IMG/VR virus record: IMGVR_UViG_3300029305_004474
Span: 36,752-100,751 of that record
Strand: one strand, 5' to 3'
DNA length: 64,000 nucleotides
DNA from: a virus
Lineage: Duplodnaviria > Caudoviricetes
Shown here: positions 11,275 to 57,569 of the stretch, piece by piece
How positions within the stretch are numbered: position 1 is the stretch's first letter
How the letters are laid out: the number at the start of each line of letters is the position of its first letter
Position numbers and translations under genes: made by a program
The notes under the pieces: generated by a model
Databases searched by the model: none
What the model was told of the DNA's origin: nothing
What the model saw: the letters and a program-made list of their open reading frames with translations, nothing else

Positions 11275-14200
11275 ATGACTATGCTTTTTAAAAGTTTAGT
11301 ACCACTCACCTTATATCAAGGACAGAAGGATTGTCCTACTCCTAAAGGTGAACCAATAGGAAAAGGTGAGATGATTTGTTTATTGAGTCCTAATACAAAT
11401 GCTACTATAAACCTCCTTACTAGTGGTTTTTTAGACTACGGCGAAGGTTTATTTAAGAAGCTATATATGGACTATGCATATTATGAAACGATTGGAACTG
11501 TTCCAGTCAGAGAAAGGTTAGATACTGATGAAATTAAAAAGATAAATGAAACCAAATTCCCTAATGAAATGGATCTTATCCCTAAAGGCGGTTTGAATAC
11601 TATCCTTAAAAGTGAAAGAAATTTTATTTTTGATTTTGGAAAATGGAACGAGATTTATTTTACTTATAGAAGAAAGACTACCCCTCTTAAGATGAGTAAT
11701 GATTATATTTCATTCATATATAAGAAGATATCTTCTGATTTATATGATAAATATCACAAGACTATCTTTATTGACGTAGCTGCGTGGAATAAACAAATAG
11801 GAGCAAAGATGGCATTATCTACTAGCAATATTAATAATCCTATTGCTATTCTATTATTTCTTTTATACAAGAATCCAGATGCTCTTACATTCATTCGAAG
11901 ATTTGATTTTATGATTTTTAATTCGTCCAATGGTACTATGACATATATTCCTGGTAATTACTTAACCAGCGAAAATTTCTCTAAAATAAAAAGTAGATTA
12001 TCTTCTATTTGTGGAACTGAACTAGAACCTGAGAATATTGAAGATTTGGATGCTGAAGCTGAAAGAGTTGCTCTTAGTATAAGCGGAGATATGTCAGCAG
12101 ATAAAAAAAGGGAAATGCGTGTTCGAAAGAAACTTAGAGAAAGAATCTCTAAGAATTTTGAAGATTACGTTCCTGAGAATGAGCTTATCAATATTGAAGA
12201 TGATGACATGTACAGATCTGAATATGAAGAAGATGAAGAAACTGGGGATGAAGATAATTTAGAGAAACAGTTTGTGCTTAAACAGAGTAAAGATTTTGAG
12301 GACGATAAAGCAGATGAAAAATCTATTGAAGATCAAATTGAAGATGAAATTGATAAATTGATTGCAGAAAAAGGTTTAGACGAAGCCGAATTAATTGCTA
12401 ATGATGAAAGCGATATTCAAGTTAATCAAATGGCTAGATCTGCCGCTAAAGTTATTTATAAAAACACATTTATTCCAGAATATACTAAAGTTCAATTAAA
12501 TAGAATCGATAGGTTAACTGAAAAGCAGAATAGTATTATTAGACCTAGAAATGCCAAAGAGAAATTAGAAGCTCTTAAAATTGACGAAACCTCATTAGAA
12601 GGTGCAGTTGATATTCCTACTAAAGAATATTTACATCCTAAATTCTCAAATTTTGATAAGTCGTATAACAATAAGAAACTTGAAAGAGATCTTGATGAAT
12701 CTGTAGCAATATTATCAACTGCTAGAAAGAAGATATTTGTAACAGATTTAAAGGTTGAAGATACATCAGATCAGATGACTCTTAAAGAAACTAGAACTTA
12801 CCATTTAGAAGATGAAGATGGTAAAAAGATGAGTATAAAAATAGATGTGCCTAAAGTTTTTGATAATCATTATGTATATATTGGAGGTAACAAAAAGATT
12901 TTAGGTCATCAGATTATCATTCTTCCTATTATAAAAAATAAGTCAGATGAAGTAAAAATTAATACTTTTTATAATAAATCTATTCTTAAAAGAAAAGGTA
13001 GGGAGGATGCTAGTGCTTCTCCATTATTAAAATATCTTATGAAAAATCAAAAGAAGTTTGATGTTAAATTGGGTAATGGCGAAAGAACTAATGAAAACTA
13101 TTTAGTTCCATTAGAATTTTCCTTAATTGGGAAGAGAATATACACATTTAATATTGGAGATTATAAGGTAAATACTTCAGTAGATATGCTATGTGAAGAA
13201 ATGAGACAAAGTGGAATTAGTTTTAAGAAACCTACAAAAACTGTATATCCTATAGCATATAATACGGCAAAGAAAGAAATTGTTTATTTCGATGCAGAAA
13301 AAGATTCTTATGCAGAAAAGTTATTAGGATTATTAGGAGAAGATATTGAAAAAGAGATTAGAAGAATGGGTATTTCTACTAGACAATTCTATGCTACATG
13401 TGAAATTATGCAAGAGACCATACCTTTAGCCCTTTTAATTCTTCATGCAGTCGGATTGACTGAGATGCTTAAGAAAGCAAATATCAAATATGAATGGATT
13501 CCTAGAGACGATGAAGCTAAAAAGAAGCTAAAAGAATATCATCCACATGATTATGGTAGAACTGAATTAGCCGATGGTACTATTGTATGGTCGAGAAAAC
13601 CAGACGAGGCTGCATTTCTCATGAATGGTATTAATAAAATCAATTTTGATGCATTCACACGAGAAGAAATGGATGATAAAGATACATTTATTTTTACCCT
13701 CAATAAGTACTATGCACATTCTAATATGTCATATAATATTGATCAGTTTACTGATTTTATGGTAGATCCGGTAAGCAAAGAAATATTAGAGCATTATGGC
13801 TATCCTACAAACTATATTGACTTATTAATATTAGGAAACAAGATGCTTACTAAAGTAGATTATATTCCAGAAACTGATATTCGAAATCAGAGAATTCGTA
13901 GTAATGATATTATTGCTCAATATACCTATAAAGCTATAGCAAATGCGTATAATGATTATCGTAAGACCGCTAATAATGTACATCCTAAACCTATTAGTGT
14001 CAAACAAGATATAGTTATGCAAAAAATATCTACCAATAGCACTACTGAAGAAGCATCAATTATTAACCCATATTTCGAAATAGATAGAATATTCGGTGCT
14101 ACATTTCACGGTGAAAACGGTATTAATGAAGCTAGAGCATTTAGTGTTGGTAAACGTGCGTTTACTGAGTCTATGTTAGGCATAATTGCACCTGTTACCG

Positions 14201-15600
14201 ATAACGCTGGTAATGTAGGTATTAACAGATATCTTACACTCGAACCTAATCTTGTAAATACAAGAGGTATTATCGATATTAAGACGAAGAAAGATTTGGA
14301 TGATATGAGTGCTACTCAGTTATTATCTCCTAGTGAATTACTTACTCCTATGGGTGTTGAACATGATGATCCTGCACGTATGGCGATGGCTGTAAAACAG
14401 TCAAGAGTAATGATACCAGTAGATGCATCTGAACCAGGTATGATTTCTAACTGTATGGACAAAACTCTTCCTTATTATCTTTCTAAAGAATTTACCGTGG
14501 TTGCAGAAGATGATGGTGAGGTAGTTGATGTTAAAGGAAATCTTATCGTAGTCAAATATAATAATGGAAGATATCAGACTATTGATACATCACCTCAAAT
14601 GAAGCATAATAGTGATGCAGGTTTTTATATTGAAACTCAAATGCAGTGTGATAAGAAAAAGGGAGATAAAGTAAAGAAGAATGAAATTATAGGTTATGAC
14701 AAAACTGCATTTAGTAAGAATAATAATGATTTGGGTGCTACTATGACTAGAGGTCCTGTTGCCAAAATGGCTATTGTTCCTAGATGGGATTGTTATGAAG
14801 ACTCTGTACCTATCAGCGAAGGTTTATCCGAAAAGATGGCTTCCACTATGGTAATGGAAGAAACCGCTTCAATCAAACCTAGTATGCCTATTCATTACAT
14901 AGTTAAAGTAGGAGACACTGTTAAAACAGGTGAACCTCTCATAACATTTGATCAATATTCACAAGATGAAGAAGTACAAGCATTTATGAATATTATTAGA
15001 GATAAACTTAGAAGCGATGGTGATGCATTTATTGAAAATTCATCTACAAGTGTAAAGGCTCATTATACAGGTGAAATAGCAGATATAAAAATATTCTCTA
15101 CTGTTCCTTTGGAAGACATGTGTCCTGAGACTAGAGCAGTTGTGGAAGCTTATTATAAGCAAATTGATGATAAGATTAAAGTTCTTAAGAAATATCAGAA
15201 TCCAGGAGATAATGACTATTATACAAGTGGTCAGAGAGTATCTGAATTTCCAGAACCAGTTAAAGCAAATTCAACTGGATTTATTAAAGGTGAAAGGGTT
15301 GGAGATGAAGGTATTGTATTCTGTTTCTATATAAAGTTTAAAGATTATATTAAGAAAGGTGATAAGGTAACAGCAGAGTTTGCACTTAAGGGCATTAATT
15401 CTCAAGTATTTCCAGAGGGAATGGAACCTTATAGCGAATTTAGACCGGATGAACCAATAGAATTTGTGCTGGCTCCACATTCTCCGCTGGCTCGAAAAAC
15501 AAGTGGTGTATTCAAAACTATGTTTGTAAATAAATTGCTTATTGAAAAGAAGAGACAACTTATGGAGTATTGGAATAGCGTAAAAGATCAGTTGAAATAA
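11275..15600 (+). CDS. Phage multisubunit RNA polymerase beta subunit, N-terminal/central part (1441 aa; phiKZ gp178-like, probably virion RNAP)
   Basis: RpoB-like motifs YIGGNKKILGHQ, TDNAGNVGINRYL, VEHDDPARMAMAVKQSRVMIP, CYEDS, KGDKVTAEFALKGINSQVFP, VLAPHSPLARK. Ends before the beta C-terminal region (split subunit); long phage-specific N-extension. Confidence 0.93.
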   Translation: MTMLFKSLVPLTLYQGQKDCPTPKGEPIGKGEMICLLSPNTNATINLLTSGFLDYGEGLFKKLYMDYAYYETIGTVPVRERLDTDEIKKINETKFPNEMDLIPKGGLNTILKSERNFIFDFGKWNEIYFTYRRKTTPLKMSNDYISFIYKKISSDLYDKYHKTIFIDVAAWNKQIGAKMALSTSNINNPIAILLFLLYKNPDALTFIRRFDFMIFNSSNGTMTYIPGNYLTSENFSKIKSRLSSICGTELEPENIEDLDAEAERVALSISGDMSADKKREMRVRKKLRERISKNFEDYVPENELINIEDDDMYRSEYEEDEETGDEDNLEKQFVLKQSKDFEDDKADEKSIEDQIEDEIDKLIAEKGLDEAELIANDESDIQVNQMARSAAKVIYKNTFIPEYTKVQLNRIDRLTEKQNSIIRPRNAKEKLEALKIDETSLEGAVDIPTKEYLHPKFSNFDKSYNNKKLERDLDESVAILSTARKKIFVTDLKVEDTSDQMTLKETRTYHLEDEDGKKMSIKIDVPKVFDNHYVYIGGNKKILGHQIIILPIIKNKSDEVKINTFYNKSILKRKGREDASASPLLKYLMKNQKKFDVKLGNGERTNENYLVPLEFSLIGKRIYTFNIGDYKVNTSVDMLCEEMRQSGISFKKPTKTVYPIAYNTAKKEIVYFDAEKDSYAEKLLGLLGEDIEKEIRRMGISTRQFYATCEIMQETIPLALLILHAVGLTEMLKKANIKYEWIPRDDEAKKKLKEYHPHDYGRTELADGTIVWSRKPDEAAFLMNGINKINFDAFTREEMDDKDTFIFTLNKYYAHSNMSYNIDQFTDFMVDPVSKEILEHYGYPTNYIDLLILGNKMLTKVDYIPETDIRNQRIRSNDIIAQYTYKAIANAYNDYRKTANNVHPKPISVKQDIVMQKISTNSTTEEASIINPYFEIDRIFGATFHGENGINEARAFSVGKRAFTESMLGIIAPVTDNAGNVGINRYLTLEPNLVNTRGIIDIKTKKDLDDMSATQLLSPSELLTPMGVEHDDPARMAMAVKQSRVMIPVDASEPGMISNCMDKTLPYYLSKEFTVVAEDDGEVVDVKGNLIVVKYNNGRYQTIDTSPQMKHNSDAGFYIETQMQCDKKKGDKVKKNEIIGYDKTAFSKNNNDLGATMTRGPVAKMAIVPRWDCYEDSVPISEGLSEKMASTMVMEETASIKPSMPIHYIVKVGDTVKTGEPLITFDQYSQDEEVQAFMNIIRDKLRSDGDAFIENSSTSVKAHYTGEIADIKIFSTVPLEDMCPETRAVVEAYYKQIDDKIKVLKKYQNPGDNDYYTSGQRVSEFPEPVKANSTGFIKGERVGDEGIVFCFYIKFKDYIKKGDKVTAEFALKGINSQVFPEGMEPYSEFRPDEPIEFVLAPHSPLARKTSGVFKTMFVNKLLIEKKRQLMEYWNSVKDQLK

Positions 15601-22038: not shown

Positions 22039-22848
22039 TTATACACCTGCCTTTTGAGTATATTGATCTGCAACAAGAAGAAAATTATTTACATCTTTAC
22101 CCATTCTTTCTATTGCTCTACTAGCTTCAGGATGATCTTCAGCAATACTTGTATTAGGTTTTATATATAAATCTCCCATAGCGGAAATAATAATAGAACC
22201 CATCTGAGCGATTTCTTTTTTATTCAGATTTAGTAACGTATCTACATGAGAACCCATACCCACATCATTAGCTCTTATTCTACTTATAAGATTCGCTTTC
22301 CATTTTTTCATATTGGTTCTTACCATGATGGACAGATTCAACATTCTTTTTTGTACTTTTACAGTCTCTTGATATGATAAGAAATCATCTTTTTTAAAAT
22401 AACCTTTGGATACCAGTTCTTTATGTTTTTCATGCATCTTAACTGCAGCACTTATAAGATTCATATTAGTTTGCATAGAAGTAATGGGTGAAGCATTGAA
22501 TATTTGAACACCCTGTTCAGCTTCTTTTCTTGTCATGCCTCTAAATAATCTTTCGTAATTATACGTGCTATTTTTGATAATTTCCTCGAAAATATCTAGA
22601 ATTTTATTAATTAACGTTCCTGAGATTCGATGCATTCTATACCCTTCTAAATTCTTTGAAAATACTATTATATTGGCAGCTACTGATTCACCGATGCTAA
22701 GCAAACCATCAATAGCAGTTTTTGATAATTTATTAGTTACTTTTTCTGCTGCTGCTATTACGTCAGATAGTGATTCTTCAGCTGGCATACCATATATATT
22801 AATCAAATCTCTAGACAATACAGATTCATATTCCTCATATCTATTCAT
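22039..22848 (-). CDS. Probable virion (inner head) protein with propeptide
   Basis: GAGGTG RBS before ATG 22848; PAEES motif near the N-terminus; AACA-N6-TA promoter at 22874-22885. Confidence 0.65.
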   Translation of the reverse strand: MNRYEEYESVLSRDLINIYGMPAEESLSDVIAAAEKVTNKLSKTAIDGLLSIGESVAANIIVFSKNLEGYRMHRISGTLINKILDIFEEIIKNSTYNYERLFRGMTRKEAEQGVQIFNASPITSMQTNMNLISAAVKMHEKHKELVSKGYFKKDDFLSYQETVKVQKRMLNLSIMVRTNMKKWKANLISRIRANDVGMGSHVDTLLNLNKKEIAQMGSIIISAMGDLYIKPNTSIAEDHPEASRAIERMGKDVNNFLLVADQYTQKAGV

Positions 22849-22916
22849 ATCTATCACCTCACATTTATGAAATTAGTGAACTGTTAAAATAAATATCAAT
22901 ACTAAAACATATTAGT

Positions 22917-23068
22917 AGGAATCAGCTATTTCAAGTACAAAACAGTTTTTACTTATCTAAGAAACAATAATAATTTAAAACTCTAGTACCTTGCATACTA
23001 GAGTGCTCCTTTGGTAAATAATTGAAAACAAAAAAAGAGGTAACCGTTTATTGGTTACCTCTTTTTTT
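22917..23068 (+). ncRNA. Candidate small RNA (about 150 nt)
   Basis: Perfect late promoter AACA tattag TA at 22906-22917; no plus-strand ORF; hairpin 22980-23004, CTCCTTT, GGTAAAT, terminator 23031-23068. Confidence 0.45.
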
Positions 23069-23086
23069 CCTTAACCGGAAAAAGAC

Positions 23087-23806
23087 TTATTTCTTTTTCT
23101 TTTTCTTTTTATTAGATTTATCTTTTTTGAACAGATCGTTTTTTGTCGATTTCTCTGCAAACTGAGCAGAAATGTGATTGATAAATGCCAATCGATCGGA
23201 TTCATCTAGCATCTTCAGCATTTCCTTTAACATATGCTCTTTGACAGAAGCATAATTTTTGGAAAAACCGTAGCCTATACAAACATTAGTACATTTATGC
23301 TTTATAGTATCTAACATTGATTTTTCAGCAAAGAATAATTCTTTATATTTCTTAATGTATTCTACTGAAAGTTTATCTAATTTATCAGCATCATATAAAA
23401 TTGCAAGATAAGGATTCTTCTTACACTTTTCAGCCATGTTCTCTGCGCCAGAATGAAATTTAACCGCATGAATTACTTTTTTCCATTCTTTTCTTTCTTC
23501 CGAAGACATGTCCCATTGATCCACGATACTTAACATAAAATCTGCAGTTAAATGACCATGATCTTCACGCACTGCAACATATTTGTGCATATCATGAATT
23601 TGACATGCAATCATAAGTTTATGAATATCTATGCTATCATATCCTTTTGCCAAACCCATGGCAATAGCTTGTACTCTAGTTATATGATCGTTTCTAAATG
23701 AAACAATCTCCTCTTCTGCAGCCGTACATTCAATCATTTTGATTGCTATACCTGCAAAATCAACCTTTGCTAAGTTATCTCTAGTTAGCTTATTATAATC
23801 TGCCAT
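23087..23806 (-). CDS. HD-domain metal-dependent phosphohydrolase (239 aa)
   Basis: DHITRV...IHDMHK...DHG...FHS...LYDADKLD; AAAGGAG RBS; poly-Lys tail. Confidence 0.85.
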   Translation of the reverse strand: MADYNKLTRDNLAKVDFAGIAIKMIECTAAEEEIVSFRNDHITRVQAIAMGLAKGYDSIDIHKLMIACQIHDMHKYVAVREDHGHLTADFMLSIVDQWDMSSEERKEWKKVIHAVKFHSGAENMAEKCKKNPYLAILYDADKLDKLSVEYIKKYKELFFAEKSMLDTIKHKCTNVCIGYGFSKNYASVKEHMLKEMLKMLDESDRLAFINHISAQFAEKSTKNDLFKKDKSNKKKKKKK

Positions 23807-29377: not shown

Positions 29378-29503
29378 CTAGCCAATTTTATTATGGTAAT
29401 TCATTTTACTCACGTTAATATTTCCTAAAACTTTCTTGTTAATTGTAGAATATCCGTGATTTTTCTTTTTGCCTGTTGCTTGTTTCTTTGATTTCTTTGC
29501 CAT
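29378..29503 (-). CDS. Small basic protein (41 aa, MAKKSKKQATGKKKNHG...)
   Basis: AGGAGG RBS; stop overlaps the RBS of the kinase-like gene. Confidence 0.65.
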   Translation of the reverse strand: MAKKSKKQATGKKKNHGYSTINKKVLGNINVSKMNYHNKIG

Positions 29504-33532: not shown

Positions 33533-33895
33533 TCAACTAGAATGATATGACCAACTGAGTTTATTTTCAATTACTCTTGGATATATAGGATCATCGTCAT
33601 ATACACTAATTTGAATGTTATTTAATTCTCTAAATTTATCCACTATCTCTTTTCTTTTATTGAGTACATCACAAAGCTCATCACGTAATTGGAATTTGCG
33701 TTTTTGCCATTCATCGAATGATTCTTTGTGCGATTTGTGATCTTCTTTATTACAGGCATCATTATAAAGTCTCATACGTTTACAGACTTCTAAATGAATT
33801 TTTTTGTATTCTTTTACAAGTTCCGCACTTTCTTCATTTAGATTATCTTGTATCATGGATTTTGGTATAATATGTTTAAATTGAGAATCTGGCAT
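33533..33895 (-). CDS. Hypothetical coiled-coil protein (120 aa)
   Basis: AAAGGAG RBS before ATG 33895. Confidence 0.7.
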   Translation of the reverse strand: MPDSQFKHIIPKSMIQDNLNEESAELVKEYKKIHLEVCKRMRLYNDACNKEDHKSHKESFDEWQKRKFQLRDELCDVLNKRKEIVDKFRELNNIQISVYDDDPIYPRVIENKLSWSYHSS

Positions 33896-33986
33896 ATTTT
33901 TCTCCTTTTCAATGTTTATTGGTAAAATGTATATACAATAATAAAAAATGTGTCCATGATTTATCACTATAAATCATGGACACAAT

Positions 33987-52548: not shown

Positions 52549-52583
52549 CAATATAAACATAAATACTGAATAGACAATAAGAT

Positions 52584-52734
52584 AAAAATATAACCTATCC
52601 AATGATATGGGCCTGGAAGTTTCTTATTGGATAAATTTCGGTTGTATTTTTCCTCCTATTTTTTATTTATGGTAAATCAAATTTTTGTGTGAAAGAGCAT
52701 TTGGACAATATGATTTTGTCTGAGTGCTCTTTTT
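52584..52734 (+). ncRNA. Candidate small RNA (about 150 nt)
   Basis: GACA ataaga TA at 52573-52584; long 5' hairpin starting at the predicted +1, then CCTCCT, GGTAAAT and a terminator; G-U pairs favour the plus strand. Confidence 0.45.
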
Positions 52735-52761
52735 GCACTATTATTTGAAAGGAGAATTCAT

Positions 52762-53424
52762 ATGAGTAAAGGATTTATTATTGAATTTGAAGGTGTTGAT
52801 GGATGTGGTAAAACAACACAAATTGAAAAACTTAAGGATTATTTTACAAGTATAGGAAGGAGTTTTACTATTCTTAAATTTCCTACGGAGAATCATGTTT
52901 CTAGCAAATTAGCTCGTGCATATTTGAATCAGGAGATTGATTCAGAATCGTTTAATGGGTATCAGGCGGAAATGTTCTATATCGTAGATTTTATTTGTCA
53001 TGCTAAAACAATTCGCGAAGCCTTAAATCGAGGCGATGTTGTTATTATTGATAGATATATTGGTACAGCGTATACTCATCAGACCATTAGAGATTTTGAT
53101 CCTGGAAATAAATTTTTTTATAATTATATGCTAAAGTATATTGAAAATATCGATGAAATAGCATATAATGTTTTGGATCTACCTGAACCAGATCTTGTAT
53201 TATATTTCAGTATTAGCCCAGGATGCGTTGAAGCTCGGAGAAAGAATGATTTGAGTAGAGCCGGAGACTATCATGAAAATAATGAAGAAATGATGAGACG
53301 AATTTATCATTCAGGATTAACAGCTGCATCTATAAAAAACTGGGATATTGTAGATTGTGATGATAAGACTATTGATCAGATTCATGCTGAAGTAATAAAA
53401 ATTGTTAAAGATTATCATTTATAA
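52762..53424 (+). CDS. tmk: Thymidylate (dTMP/dUMP) kinase (220 aa)
   Basis: IEFEGVDGCGKTTQ, KFP, IIDRYIGT, LPEPDLVLYF, DYHE. Confidence 0.9.
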   Translation: MSKGFIIEFEGVDGCGKTTQIEKLKDYFTSIGRSFTILKFPTENHVSSKLARAYLNQEIDSESFNGYQAEMFYIVDFICHAKTIREALNRGDVVIIDRYIGTAYTHQTIRDFDPGNKFFYNYMLKYIENIDEIAYNVLDLPEPDLVLYFSISPGCVEARRKNDLSRAGDYHENNEEMMRRIYHSGLTAASIKNWDIVDCDDKTIDQIHAEVIKIVKDYHL

Positions 53425-56343: not shown

Positions 56344-56378
56344 AAAAGAGAGAGTGATATATATCACTCTCTCTTTTT
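56344..56378. terminator. Bidirectional terminator
   Basis: AAAAAGAGAGAGTGAT ata ATCACTCTCTCTTTTT-type perfect inverted repeat between convergent genes. Confidence 0.8.
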
Positions 56379-57282
56379 ATCCCTCGTATACTGAAAGTAA
56401 AACACCTCTAGCCACATTTATTTTATTTATCTTGATTTTTACATATTCGTCAATCATTCTACCATACATATTTTGTATCAAAATCATTCTATCTGTATAT
56501 TTTTTTGCTCTATTTCTTATTTCTTTGCTTAGATTAGTATTGGTAGAAACTAATTTGAAGTTTGCATTTATTTTTGCCATAGTATCTCTATTCTTAGCTT
56601 TGTCAGTACTAATTTTAACATGAATAGCATCTTTTCTACCGGCGGCAATATCTTCATATGATTTTACATCTCCTTCGTAAATCGGTATTGCTACTTGATT
56701 TCCTTTACATACTTTATGCAAATATTTATAAAAATCGTCCATAGTTTTACAAAATTCCGGAGCACCTAGTTTTTTTAGTATTGTTTTAATTAATTCCTCA
56801 TGGGTCATTTCTAGTAATGAATCTTCTGGTAATCTAGAACCAAATGCATTACCAGATACAATTCTATTTGTATTATCTACCAACAATCTAAATCTTGCTA
56901 ATGCAATATCTGCAGGTTTTGTATTACATTTATATGTAGGTACTGTCACTGGAAAGTTTGGTTTGCTTTTTTTACCTTCCTCTATTCTTTTCAAAAAGTC
57001 ATTGTCTGAAGCAAATAAGAGATCTAATTTAGCATCAATTCCATTAAATAGACTAGCAAAAAATTCTACTAATTTAGAAATAGCTTCACTTAAAACATCA
57101 GACATTTCATTTATTTTTTCTCTGCTTTTCACTACTTCTTCTTGGGTCAATGTAGATTTCCCTTTATCACTATCTTGATCTACTTCTGCAGGTTTGCTAA
57201 TTGGTGTAGTTATAGGTTTTGTCATATCCGCTTCTAGTGCAGTAGATTTATTATTAAACCTATTAAAAGATGAGTATAACAT
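56377..57282 (-). CDS. Probable virion protein with propeptide (301 aa)
   Basis: TALEA motif at residues 14-18; AACA ttttga TA at 57310-57321; AAAGGA RBS. Confidence 0.65.
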   Translation of the reverse strand: MLYSSFNRFNNKSTALEADMTKPITTPISKPAEVDQDSDKGKSTLTQEEVVKSREKINEMSDVLSEAISKLVEFFASLFNGIDAKLDLLFASDNDFLKRIEEGKKSKPNFPVTVPTYKCNTKPADIALARFRLLVDNTNRIVSGNAFGSRLPEDSLLEMTHEELIKTILKKLGAPEFCKTMDDFYKYLHKVCKGNQVAIPIYEGDVKSYEDIAAGRKDAIHVKISTDKAKNRDTMAKINANFKLVSTNTNLSKEIRNRAKKYTDRMILIQNMYGRMIDEYVKIKINKINVARGVLLSVYEG

Positions 57283-57569
57283 AAATACATCAATCCTTTC
57301 TTATAAAATTATCAAAATGTTGATTAGGGGATTTTAAAGAGATTACCTGTTAGCCAGATAGGTAATCTCTTTACATACGTGGAAATTTACAACTCCTTTA
57401 GAGAATAAAAAACGACTTGCTCTAATATAATGTTGCTTAATTATAATTACGTAATCAATTTAAAATTAAATATATATCATAAATAAGATATCTAATAGAG
57501 ATGGTAAAAGCTATATTCGGGTCTCTTATAGCTATCAAAAAAAAAAAAGAAAGCGGAGGTAAATAAAAA

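Follow-up and report, generated by a model that had tools for sequence, protein, structure and literature searches.

Probable back-to-back late promoters and a predicted late non-coding RNA in a spacer of an uncultured AR9-like jumbo phage

In this study, a 64,000-nucleotide stretch of phage DNA (the window; bases 36752-100751 of the 100,751-bp IMG/VR contig IMGVR_UViG_3300029305_004474, whose completeness was put at ~42% by CheckV) was analyzed, with the focus on a 238-bp spacer (22849-23086) separating two minus-strand genes. This spacer contains, on its plus strand, a copy of the AACA-N6-TAG form of the late promoter known from Bacillus phage AR9 (22906-22918), placed back-to-back with a minus-strand late promoter. 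Motifs of the AR9 type were shown to serve as promoters in this phage and to be purged from its coding DNA, and the plus-strand copy, as judged from its sequence, is probably an active promoter. We consider it rather probable that a late plus-strand non-coding RNA of ~150 nt, starting at position 22917, exists, and doubtful that this transcript has a selected function. The explanation favoured here as a whole, i.e. a control region with back-to-back late promoters and a plus-strand RNA of the orphan/antisense class of AR9, is held with evenly balanced confidence.

Late-promoter motifs and their avoidance in coding DNA

The window has a GC content of ~30% and encodes very large proteins, including a single-chain, 1441-amino-acid RNA polymerase beta-like protein (11275-15600). 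This protein matches the PHROG families of RNA polymerase beta subunits (E = 1e-142) and, in Pfam, Rpb2 domain 6, which points to a multisubunit RNA polymerase of the jumbo-phage type, and it is 27-29% identical (tblastn) to proteins of Listeria phage LPJP1, Bacillus phage PBS1 and Staphylococcus jumbo phages. Sequence identical to that of the contig was found, at low depth, in faeces metagenome runs (from animals, according to the run records). From these matches, identities and runs, the DNA is assigned, on sequence grounds, to a distant jumbo phage of the AR9/PBS1 kind that is uncultured and comes from animal faeces. Relatives of the beta-like protein with similar length and 54-70% identity are present on ENA/Logan contigs of up to 270 kb, and the group carrying them looks like a sizeable uncultured clade.

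Two promoter classes were defined in AR9, with the early consensus AAATATATATTAT-N6-G and the late consensus AACA-N6-T-A/G, in which the final base is the transcription start site (PMC5312081); positions -11 to -8 of the late promoter are essential (PMC5449584). Both classes are recognizable in the contig analyzed here. The AR9-type early motif, ATATATATNAT-N6-G, was found before several genes, and all 12 intergenic copies of AACA-N6-TAA lie on the strand of, and close upstream of, the next start codon, the distance being 13-62 nt in 11 cases (the twelfth copy overlaps a crude open reading frame call). Variants with the cores GACA, AACG, AACT, AACC and GACT, also followed by N6-TAA, precede many other starts by 19-79 nt, mostly by less than 45 nt.

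In the window, AACA-N6-TW is rarer than expected (88 versus 148 sites). At the 669 AACA sites of coding DNA (both strands), TAA after N6 was observed once against 22.7 expected occurrences and TAG not at all against 11.9, which gives 1 versus 34.7 for both trinucleotides jointly (P = 3e-14), while TAT and TAC at the same distance are near expectation. The depletion is only partial when position -11 or -8 of the motif is altered, and it is gone when -10 or -9 is altered. The coding DNA of a complete, distant relative of 254,592 bp (IMGVR_UViG_3300010163_000001, hereafter G001) is purged likewise, with 15 TAA versus 79.4 expected and 9 TAG versus 28.2 expected. Since it is avoided within genes both here and in G001, the TAG form is read as active: it behaves like a promoter form that cannot be afforded inside genes, as far as can be judged from these counts. 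The purging of AACA-N6-TAA/TAG from coding DNA thus reports the specificity of the late promoter of an uncultured phage from its sequence alone, in a culture-free manner, and the early/late promoter grammar of the AR9 type proves to be kept across phages whose polymerases are less than 30% identical. A purine is preferred at +2 in this phage; AR9 itself has no such preference.

The whole contig (100 kb) contains only two AACA-N6-TAG sites, both of them intergenic: the plus-strand site at 22906 and a minus-strand site at 57434. The latter (57423-57434) is located 141 nt upstream of the gene 56377-57282 and precedes the proper late promoter of this gene by 113 nt; with an orphan AAAGGAG and a hairpin behind it, it may be a second, upstream promoter.

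The plus-strand promoter candidate and its predicted transcript

At the candidate site, AACATATTAGTA occupies positions 22906-22917 and a G comes next. Its AACA (22906-22909) falls on positions -11 to -8, which are the essential ones in AR9, and is followed by a spacer of six bases (TATTAG), T22916 at -1 and A22917 at +1, in agreement with the AR9 late consensus. The candidate departs from the preference of its own phage at +2, where it carries G in place of the A present in 12/12 gene-proximal sites. The weight of this difference could be calibrated with the 56 late starts of AR9 that are listed in Table S3 of PMC5312081 and lie within the first 150 kb of its genome, after reading them onto the genome sequence. 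Among these mapped starts, the context is TAT in 17, TAA in 16 and TAG in 6 cases, and the intergenic AACA-N6-TAG sites of AR9 coincide with mapped late starts in 5 of 7 cases (AACA-N6-TAA: 13 of 14).

Two of the mapped AR9 starts have surroundings like those of the candidate. The start at 115851 (plus strand) lies between the minus-strand genes g141 and g142, is classed as antisense and is followed 46 nt further on by a terminator-like hairpin on the plus strand. The start at 75478 (minus strand), also classed as antisense, lies between the plus-strand genes g090 and g091 and its transcript, which is abundant (step height 3757), enters the 3' hairpin of g090. On account of the avoidance in coding DNA and of this calibration, the site at 22906-22918 is read as a probable promoter rather than as a chance match. 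The existence of the late ~150-nt RNA is considered likely for the same reasons, i.e. the purging of the motif from coding DNA and the five of seven TAG sites mapped in AR9, and because the AR9 layouts are alike.

The predicted late RNA (22917-23072, plus strand) consists of an AU-rich 5' part, the hairpin H2, a 25-nt linker with CUCCUUUGGUAAAU, and the terminator T1. H2 (22980-23004) is built on both strands from the arms ACTCTAGTA and TACTAGAGT, which form 9 perfect pairs around a 7-bp spacer. The linker contains GCTCCTTT (23005-23012) and, directly after it, GGTAAAT (23013-23019), the two motifs singled out in the initial annotation of this DNA. T1 (23030-23068) is a symmetric intrinsic terminator composed of A7, a 16-pair stem with a 9-bp GC-containing core, and T7, with the features of an intrinsic terminator on both strands (-22.0 and -22.9 kcal/mol); it ends the upstream gene, encoding an HD-domain protein, on the minus strand and would also stop a plus-strand transcript. 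In the centroid fold of the predicted RNA, H2 and T1 are formed, the linker is free and CUCCU is unpaired. The hairpins of the spacer region exceed chance (folding z = -4.5 to -4.8). No credible plus-strand open reading frame was found, the only one being a TTG-started frame of 47 amino acids (23022-23165) without a ribosome-binding site. Every element listed in the initial annotation is present where it had been placed, and its view of a late promoter reading into ~150 nt without an open reading frame is upheld as regards the promoter and a probable late non-coding RNA; it is not upheld as regards a family of anti-Shine-Dalgarno RNAs.

Several observations weigh against an active plus-strand promoter or against its strength. 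All of the 12 gene-proximal late promoters with an AACA core carry TAA and none TAG, and the intergenic AACA-N6-TAR sites of G001 are nearly all of the TAA form too (27 TAA; the single TAG overlaps a TAA site). Because of this usage, the TAG site is probably weak. A weight matrix derived from the 12 sites gives the candidate 6.3 bits, which is low within the leave-one-out range of these sites (2.1-14.3), and 47 other positions of the genome reach the same score. About 1.2 intergenic TAG sites would be expected without selection, according to a rough estimate from site counts, and 2 were seen. Terminators as symmetric as T1 are also present in other co-directional spacers of the contig, and the symmetry of T1 was for this reason dropped as a sign of plus-strand transcription. 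Finally, the stability of H2 is slightly higher in minus-strand RNA (-12.6 versus -10.4 kcal/mol on the plus strand, a G-U forming the tenth pair), and the hairpin is terminator-like, weakly, on the minus strand only, where it is followed by TTTTAAATTATT / UUUUAAAUUAUU; it can also be read as a back-up terminator behind T1.

The same facts are the strength of a less probable, yet by no means negligible, alternative, in which the plus strand is not transcribed at all and the spacer holds minus-strand signals only. T1 and H2 would then insulate the early unit of the HD gene from the late orphan gene that lies downstream of the spacer, and the plus-strand AACA-N6-TAG would be a neutral chance match, tolerated since it is bounded by a terminator. 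Both neighbouring genes being on the minus strand, the preference of H2 for that strand, the lack of TAG among gene-proximal promoters, the frequency of equal matrix scores and the roughly one intergenic TAG site expected by chance all fit this picture. What speaks against it is the purging of TAG from coding DNA here and in G001, which implies activity, together with the fate of the intergenic TAG sites of AR9, most of which are mapped starts.

It may also be asked whether H2 acts as DNA, i.e. as an operator bound by a helix-turn-helix protein of the phage and controlling the adjacent late promoters. Being a perfect inverted repeat (9 bp, separated by 7 bp) close to two promoters, H2 would suit such a role, but the half-site was found nowhere else in the contig, the 36 metagenome matches to the H2 palindrome are unrelated chance matches, and ~40 comparable perfect hairpins, mostly obvious terminators, are present in the spacers of this phage. 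We give this reading hardly any credence.

In the favoured explanation, the spacer would serve this AR9-like jumbo phage as an ordinary control region, in which two late promoters stand back-to-back, 20 bp apart. On the minus strand, the HD gene would end at the strong terminator T1, followed by the weaker H2, and the AACA-N6-TAA promoter (22873-22885; start at ~22874, 26 nt before the ATG) would then drive the orphan gene. On the plus strand, AACA-N6-TAG would most likely be fired late in infection by the non-virion RNA polymerase of the phage, from A22917, giving a non-coding RNA of ~150 nt that includes H2 and stops at T1. Across T1, such an RNA would be able to pair in cis with the 3' end of the HD messenger RNA (mRNA), to which it is complementary, as it is to transcripts reading through T1. 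The likeliest effect of the RNA, if any, would be local, by pairing or interference with transcription that continues from the early unit into the late gene. Equally, the RNA may be a by-product that the phage tolerates. CUCCU and GGUAAAU are taken to be incidental in this explanation.

Anti-Shine-Dalgarno and peptide readings

The initial annotation had combined the spacer element (region A) with a second plus-strand region (region B, 52573-52761) into a family of late, trans-acting RNAs, whose exposed CUCCU would silence the AAGGAG ribosome-binding sites of early or host mRNAs. Region B contains, in this order, GACA-N6-TAA (52573-52585), a long hairpin (~52584-52650), CCTCCT (52652-52657), GGTAAAT (52671-52677) and a terminator-like hairpin (~52687-52735). 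The order of elements seen in region A recurs at 52584-52734 only as a list of short elements; there is no homology behind it and the fold differs. Regions A and B do not align and share no repeat family, region B folds as one long hairpin in which CCUCC is paired, and no further copy was found in the contig or in four relatives.

A different role fits region B better. Its GACA-N6-TAA precedes the gene for thymidylate kinase (52762-53424) by 178 nt and is the sole promoter-like site in the 213-nt spacer ahead of that gene (52549-52761); 27 nt separate the end of the terminator-like hairpin from the ATG at 52762. Of the six intergenic GACA-N6-TAA sites, five stand immediately before genes, and the GACA variant is therefore probably active. 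Since no other promoter-like site precedes thymidylate kinase and this one lies upstream of the hairpins, region B is best read as a long structured leader of the gene, possibly an attenuator.

The idea of a trans-acting family has some features on its side. Both regions have a probable late-type promoter with no gene directly after it, a hairpin, a CUCCU stretch, GGUAAAU and a terminator-like hairpin; CUCCU is unpaired in the centroid fold of region A; and the abundant late antisense RNA of AR9 (75478, minus strand) also bears CCUCCU, at +6 to +11. CTCCT followed by GGTAAAT within 25 nt was seen twice in the contig against 0.07-0.32 expected occurrences, but the two motifs were paired up only once the data had been seen, and their combination is thus not counted as exceeding chance. 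A third look-alike, at 33902, is the Shine-Dalgarno (SD) sequence of the gene 33533-33895. CTCCT alone is not beyond chance, and it corresponds to the reverse of AAAGGAG, the most enriched intergenic word (26 versus 2.4 expected). GGTAAAT is not enriched in G001 (1 versus 4.7 expected).

Nor do the predicted targets speak for silencing in trans. The target search was confined to the mRNAs of the contig, i.e. of ~42% of the phage genome. Within this scope, exact complementarity of 22917-23029 to mRNAs does not exceed 11 nt (11-13 nt for shuffled sequences), and the best duplex between the linker and an initiation region (-17.2 kcal/mol, versus -15.0 +/- 2.0) is equalled by 14% of the shuffles that keep CTCCT. 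Target prediction, which had been proposed as a check, thus gave neither complementarity nor duplex energies above the shuffled controls. Moreover, the motif would hit the late genes of the phage itself equally, as their ribosome-binding consensus is GAAAGGAG (AAAGGAG), and the promoter of region A is the weak-looking TAG variant. Orphan SD-like motifs are common in intergenic DNA (about 15-18), and several of them are merely terminator stems. With regions A and B unrelated, CCUCC of region B paired in a long hairpin behind the only promoter of thymidylate kinase, GGTAAAT unenriched in G001 and pairing no better than in controls, the family is very unlikely, and the attractive claim of an anti-SD regulator family is left without support. 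Extremely unlikely, too, is a wider version of it, in which the RNAs of regions A and B, and perhaps the AR9 RNA from 75478, would form a functional class of late jumbo-phage RNAs that mimic the 3' tail of 16S ribosomal RNA and titrate or mask the SD sequences of selected early or host messages.

Some of the words considered here recur in other settings. AAGGAG...CTCCTT forms the stem ends of some terminator hairpins, e.g. at -34773 to -34734 and -11925 to -11899 relative to the window start, so that orphan SD-like words in spacers often have a structural and not a translational role. Among intergenic 8-mers outside ribosome-binding sites, ATGGTAAA shows the strongest enrichment (7 versus 0.86 expected); all of its copies are oriented like the gene that follows (e.g. 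25186 and 48333 on the minus strand, 52670 and 57502 on the plus strand) and is not enriched in G001. GGTAAAT/TGGTAAA was considered as a promoter or signal and rejected: region A has TTGGTAAAT and not ATGGTAAA, the orientation is inconsistent with a role in region A, and there is no enrichment in G001.

The second idea of the initial annotation was an antisense/peptide pair. On the minus strand (22949-23012), an SD-like AAAGGAG (23012-23006) is followed, after a 9-nt spacer, by ATG at 22996 and 15 codons encoding MQGTRVLNYYCFLDK. In this reading, the frame would be translated from transcripts reading through T1 and repressed by the plus-strand RNA covering it. The geometry fits: the SD sequence and its spacing are optimal for this phage, the predicted RNA (22917-23068) covers the frame together with its SD sequence in full complementarity, and in AR9 the start at 75478 adjoins an unannotated, SD-led frame of 21 codons. 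The frame is led by a ribosome-binding site, begins with a start codon and stays open, but it is indistinguishable from chance and has no promoter of its own. There is no promoter between T1 and the SD sequence, so that transcription would occur only by read-through of a strong terminator; the number of orphan SD-like motifs followed by a start codon (4-5) equals the chance rate, by a rough estimate; the peptide has no recognisable features or homologues; and the start codon, positioned at the loop of H2, is buried in this hairpin. We regard the pair as very improbable. In the AR9 genome (KU878088, 75401-75550), CCUCCU of the RNA starting at 75478 is the reverse of the AGGAGG that leads the 21-codon plus-strand frame (75486-75550), and this frame overlaps the start of g091.

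Related systems, flanking genes and further observations

By comparison of layouts, the candidate resembles the mapped orphan and antisense late starts of Bacillus phage AR9 (Lavysh et al. 2017, PMC5312081), with which it has the AACA-N6-T-A/G consensus in common. Like the AR9 starts at 115851 and 75478, it would give a transcript on the opposite strand, within a spacer of co-oriented genes, directed toward the 3' hairpin of the upstream gene and without an open reading frame, and a late timing would be in keeping with the class of polymerase reading the motif, from which it is expected. The differences are that the AR9 starts were mapped experimentally while the start considered here is predicted, that there is no sequence similarity, that the phages are very distant (RNA polymerase beta 27-29% identical), and that the strong two-way terminator found here should limit the RNA to ~150 nt, while the AR9 RNAs reportedly run antisense to the neighbouring gene. 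An uncultured jumbo phage of the gut would, if the RNA is real, join the short list of phages whose own late polymerase makes short non-coding or antisense RNAs.

The C-rich small RNAs of Firmicutes (RsaE/RoxS, loops of RNAIII) target SD regions and have conserved, repeated C-rich motifs and defined regulons. The predicted RNA is like the RsaE/RoxS type in having an unpaired, pyrimidine-rich motif complementary to ribosome-binding sites between hairpins, its own promoter and an intrinsic terminator; it differs in that its CUCCU is single, no preferred target was found for it among the mRNAs of the contig and no Rfam match at gathering score was obtained. Bidirectional intrinsic terminators shared by convergent transcripts are a general feature of bacteria and phages. 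T1, with its A-tract, stem and T-tract, would likewise stop transcription of the HD mRNA and of the plus-strand RNA alike and leave them with complementary 3' ends, but symmetric terminators are present in this phage also where no convergent transcript is predicted, and symmetry is thus not diagnostic. In phage phiKZ, another jumbo phage with multisubunit polymerases of its own, a small non-coding RNA of 75 nt was predicted and was not confirmed by northern blot, and such RNAs, if they exist, were expected to be late (PMC8244752, Wicke et al. 2020). The phiKZ candidate differs from the one described here in its promoter type and shows no sequence relation to it.

Rfam 15 gave no match in the window at gathering thresholds; below threshold, the best matches (E of at least 0.04) were driven by the terminator, the best of them being GibS with 28.8 bits against a gathering score of 115. 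Only chance matches were obtained when the spacer was compared with phages by blastn, and neither an exact 23-mer nor the H2 palindrome was found in viral contigs. The locus was not found in IMG/VR or the JGI metagenomes when the flanking proteins were used as queries. Four IMG/VR relatives (29-38% identity) lack both flanking genes and the RNA. The sequence is identical, without variants, in four faecal DNA runs.

Downstream of the spacer lies the orphan gene (22039-22848, minus strand), whose product of 268/269 amino acids belongs to no Pfam or PHROG family; among 5.8 billion proteins, the only match of the 268-amino-acid protein was the protein itself. The gene on the other side (23087-23806, minus strand) encodes a predicted HD-domain phosphohydrolase (Pfam PF01966), whose only relative found is 70% identical and encoded on a 759-bp contig. 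The HD gene is preceded on the minus strand by an early promoter motif, ATATATATCAT-N6-G (23897-23880), and by a late-type one, AACT-N6-TAA (23860-23848), and this pair matches the AR9 class of continuously expressed genes.

In G001, orphan AACA-N6-TAA sites followed by long perfect hairpins and no open reading frame were observed at 160051 (minus strand), 169057 (plus strand) and 184812/184861 (plus strand), the last two adjoining a minus-strand sequence resembling transfer RNA. Judging from these sites, late non-coding transcripts may be common in this phage group. Within the window, an unannotated, lysine-rich frame of 41 codons with a strong ribosome-binding site (TTAGGAGGAAAA) was noticed in a 167-nt spacer at ~29378-29503, on the minus strand.

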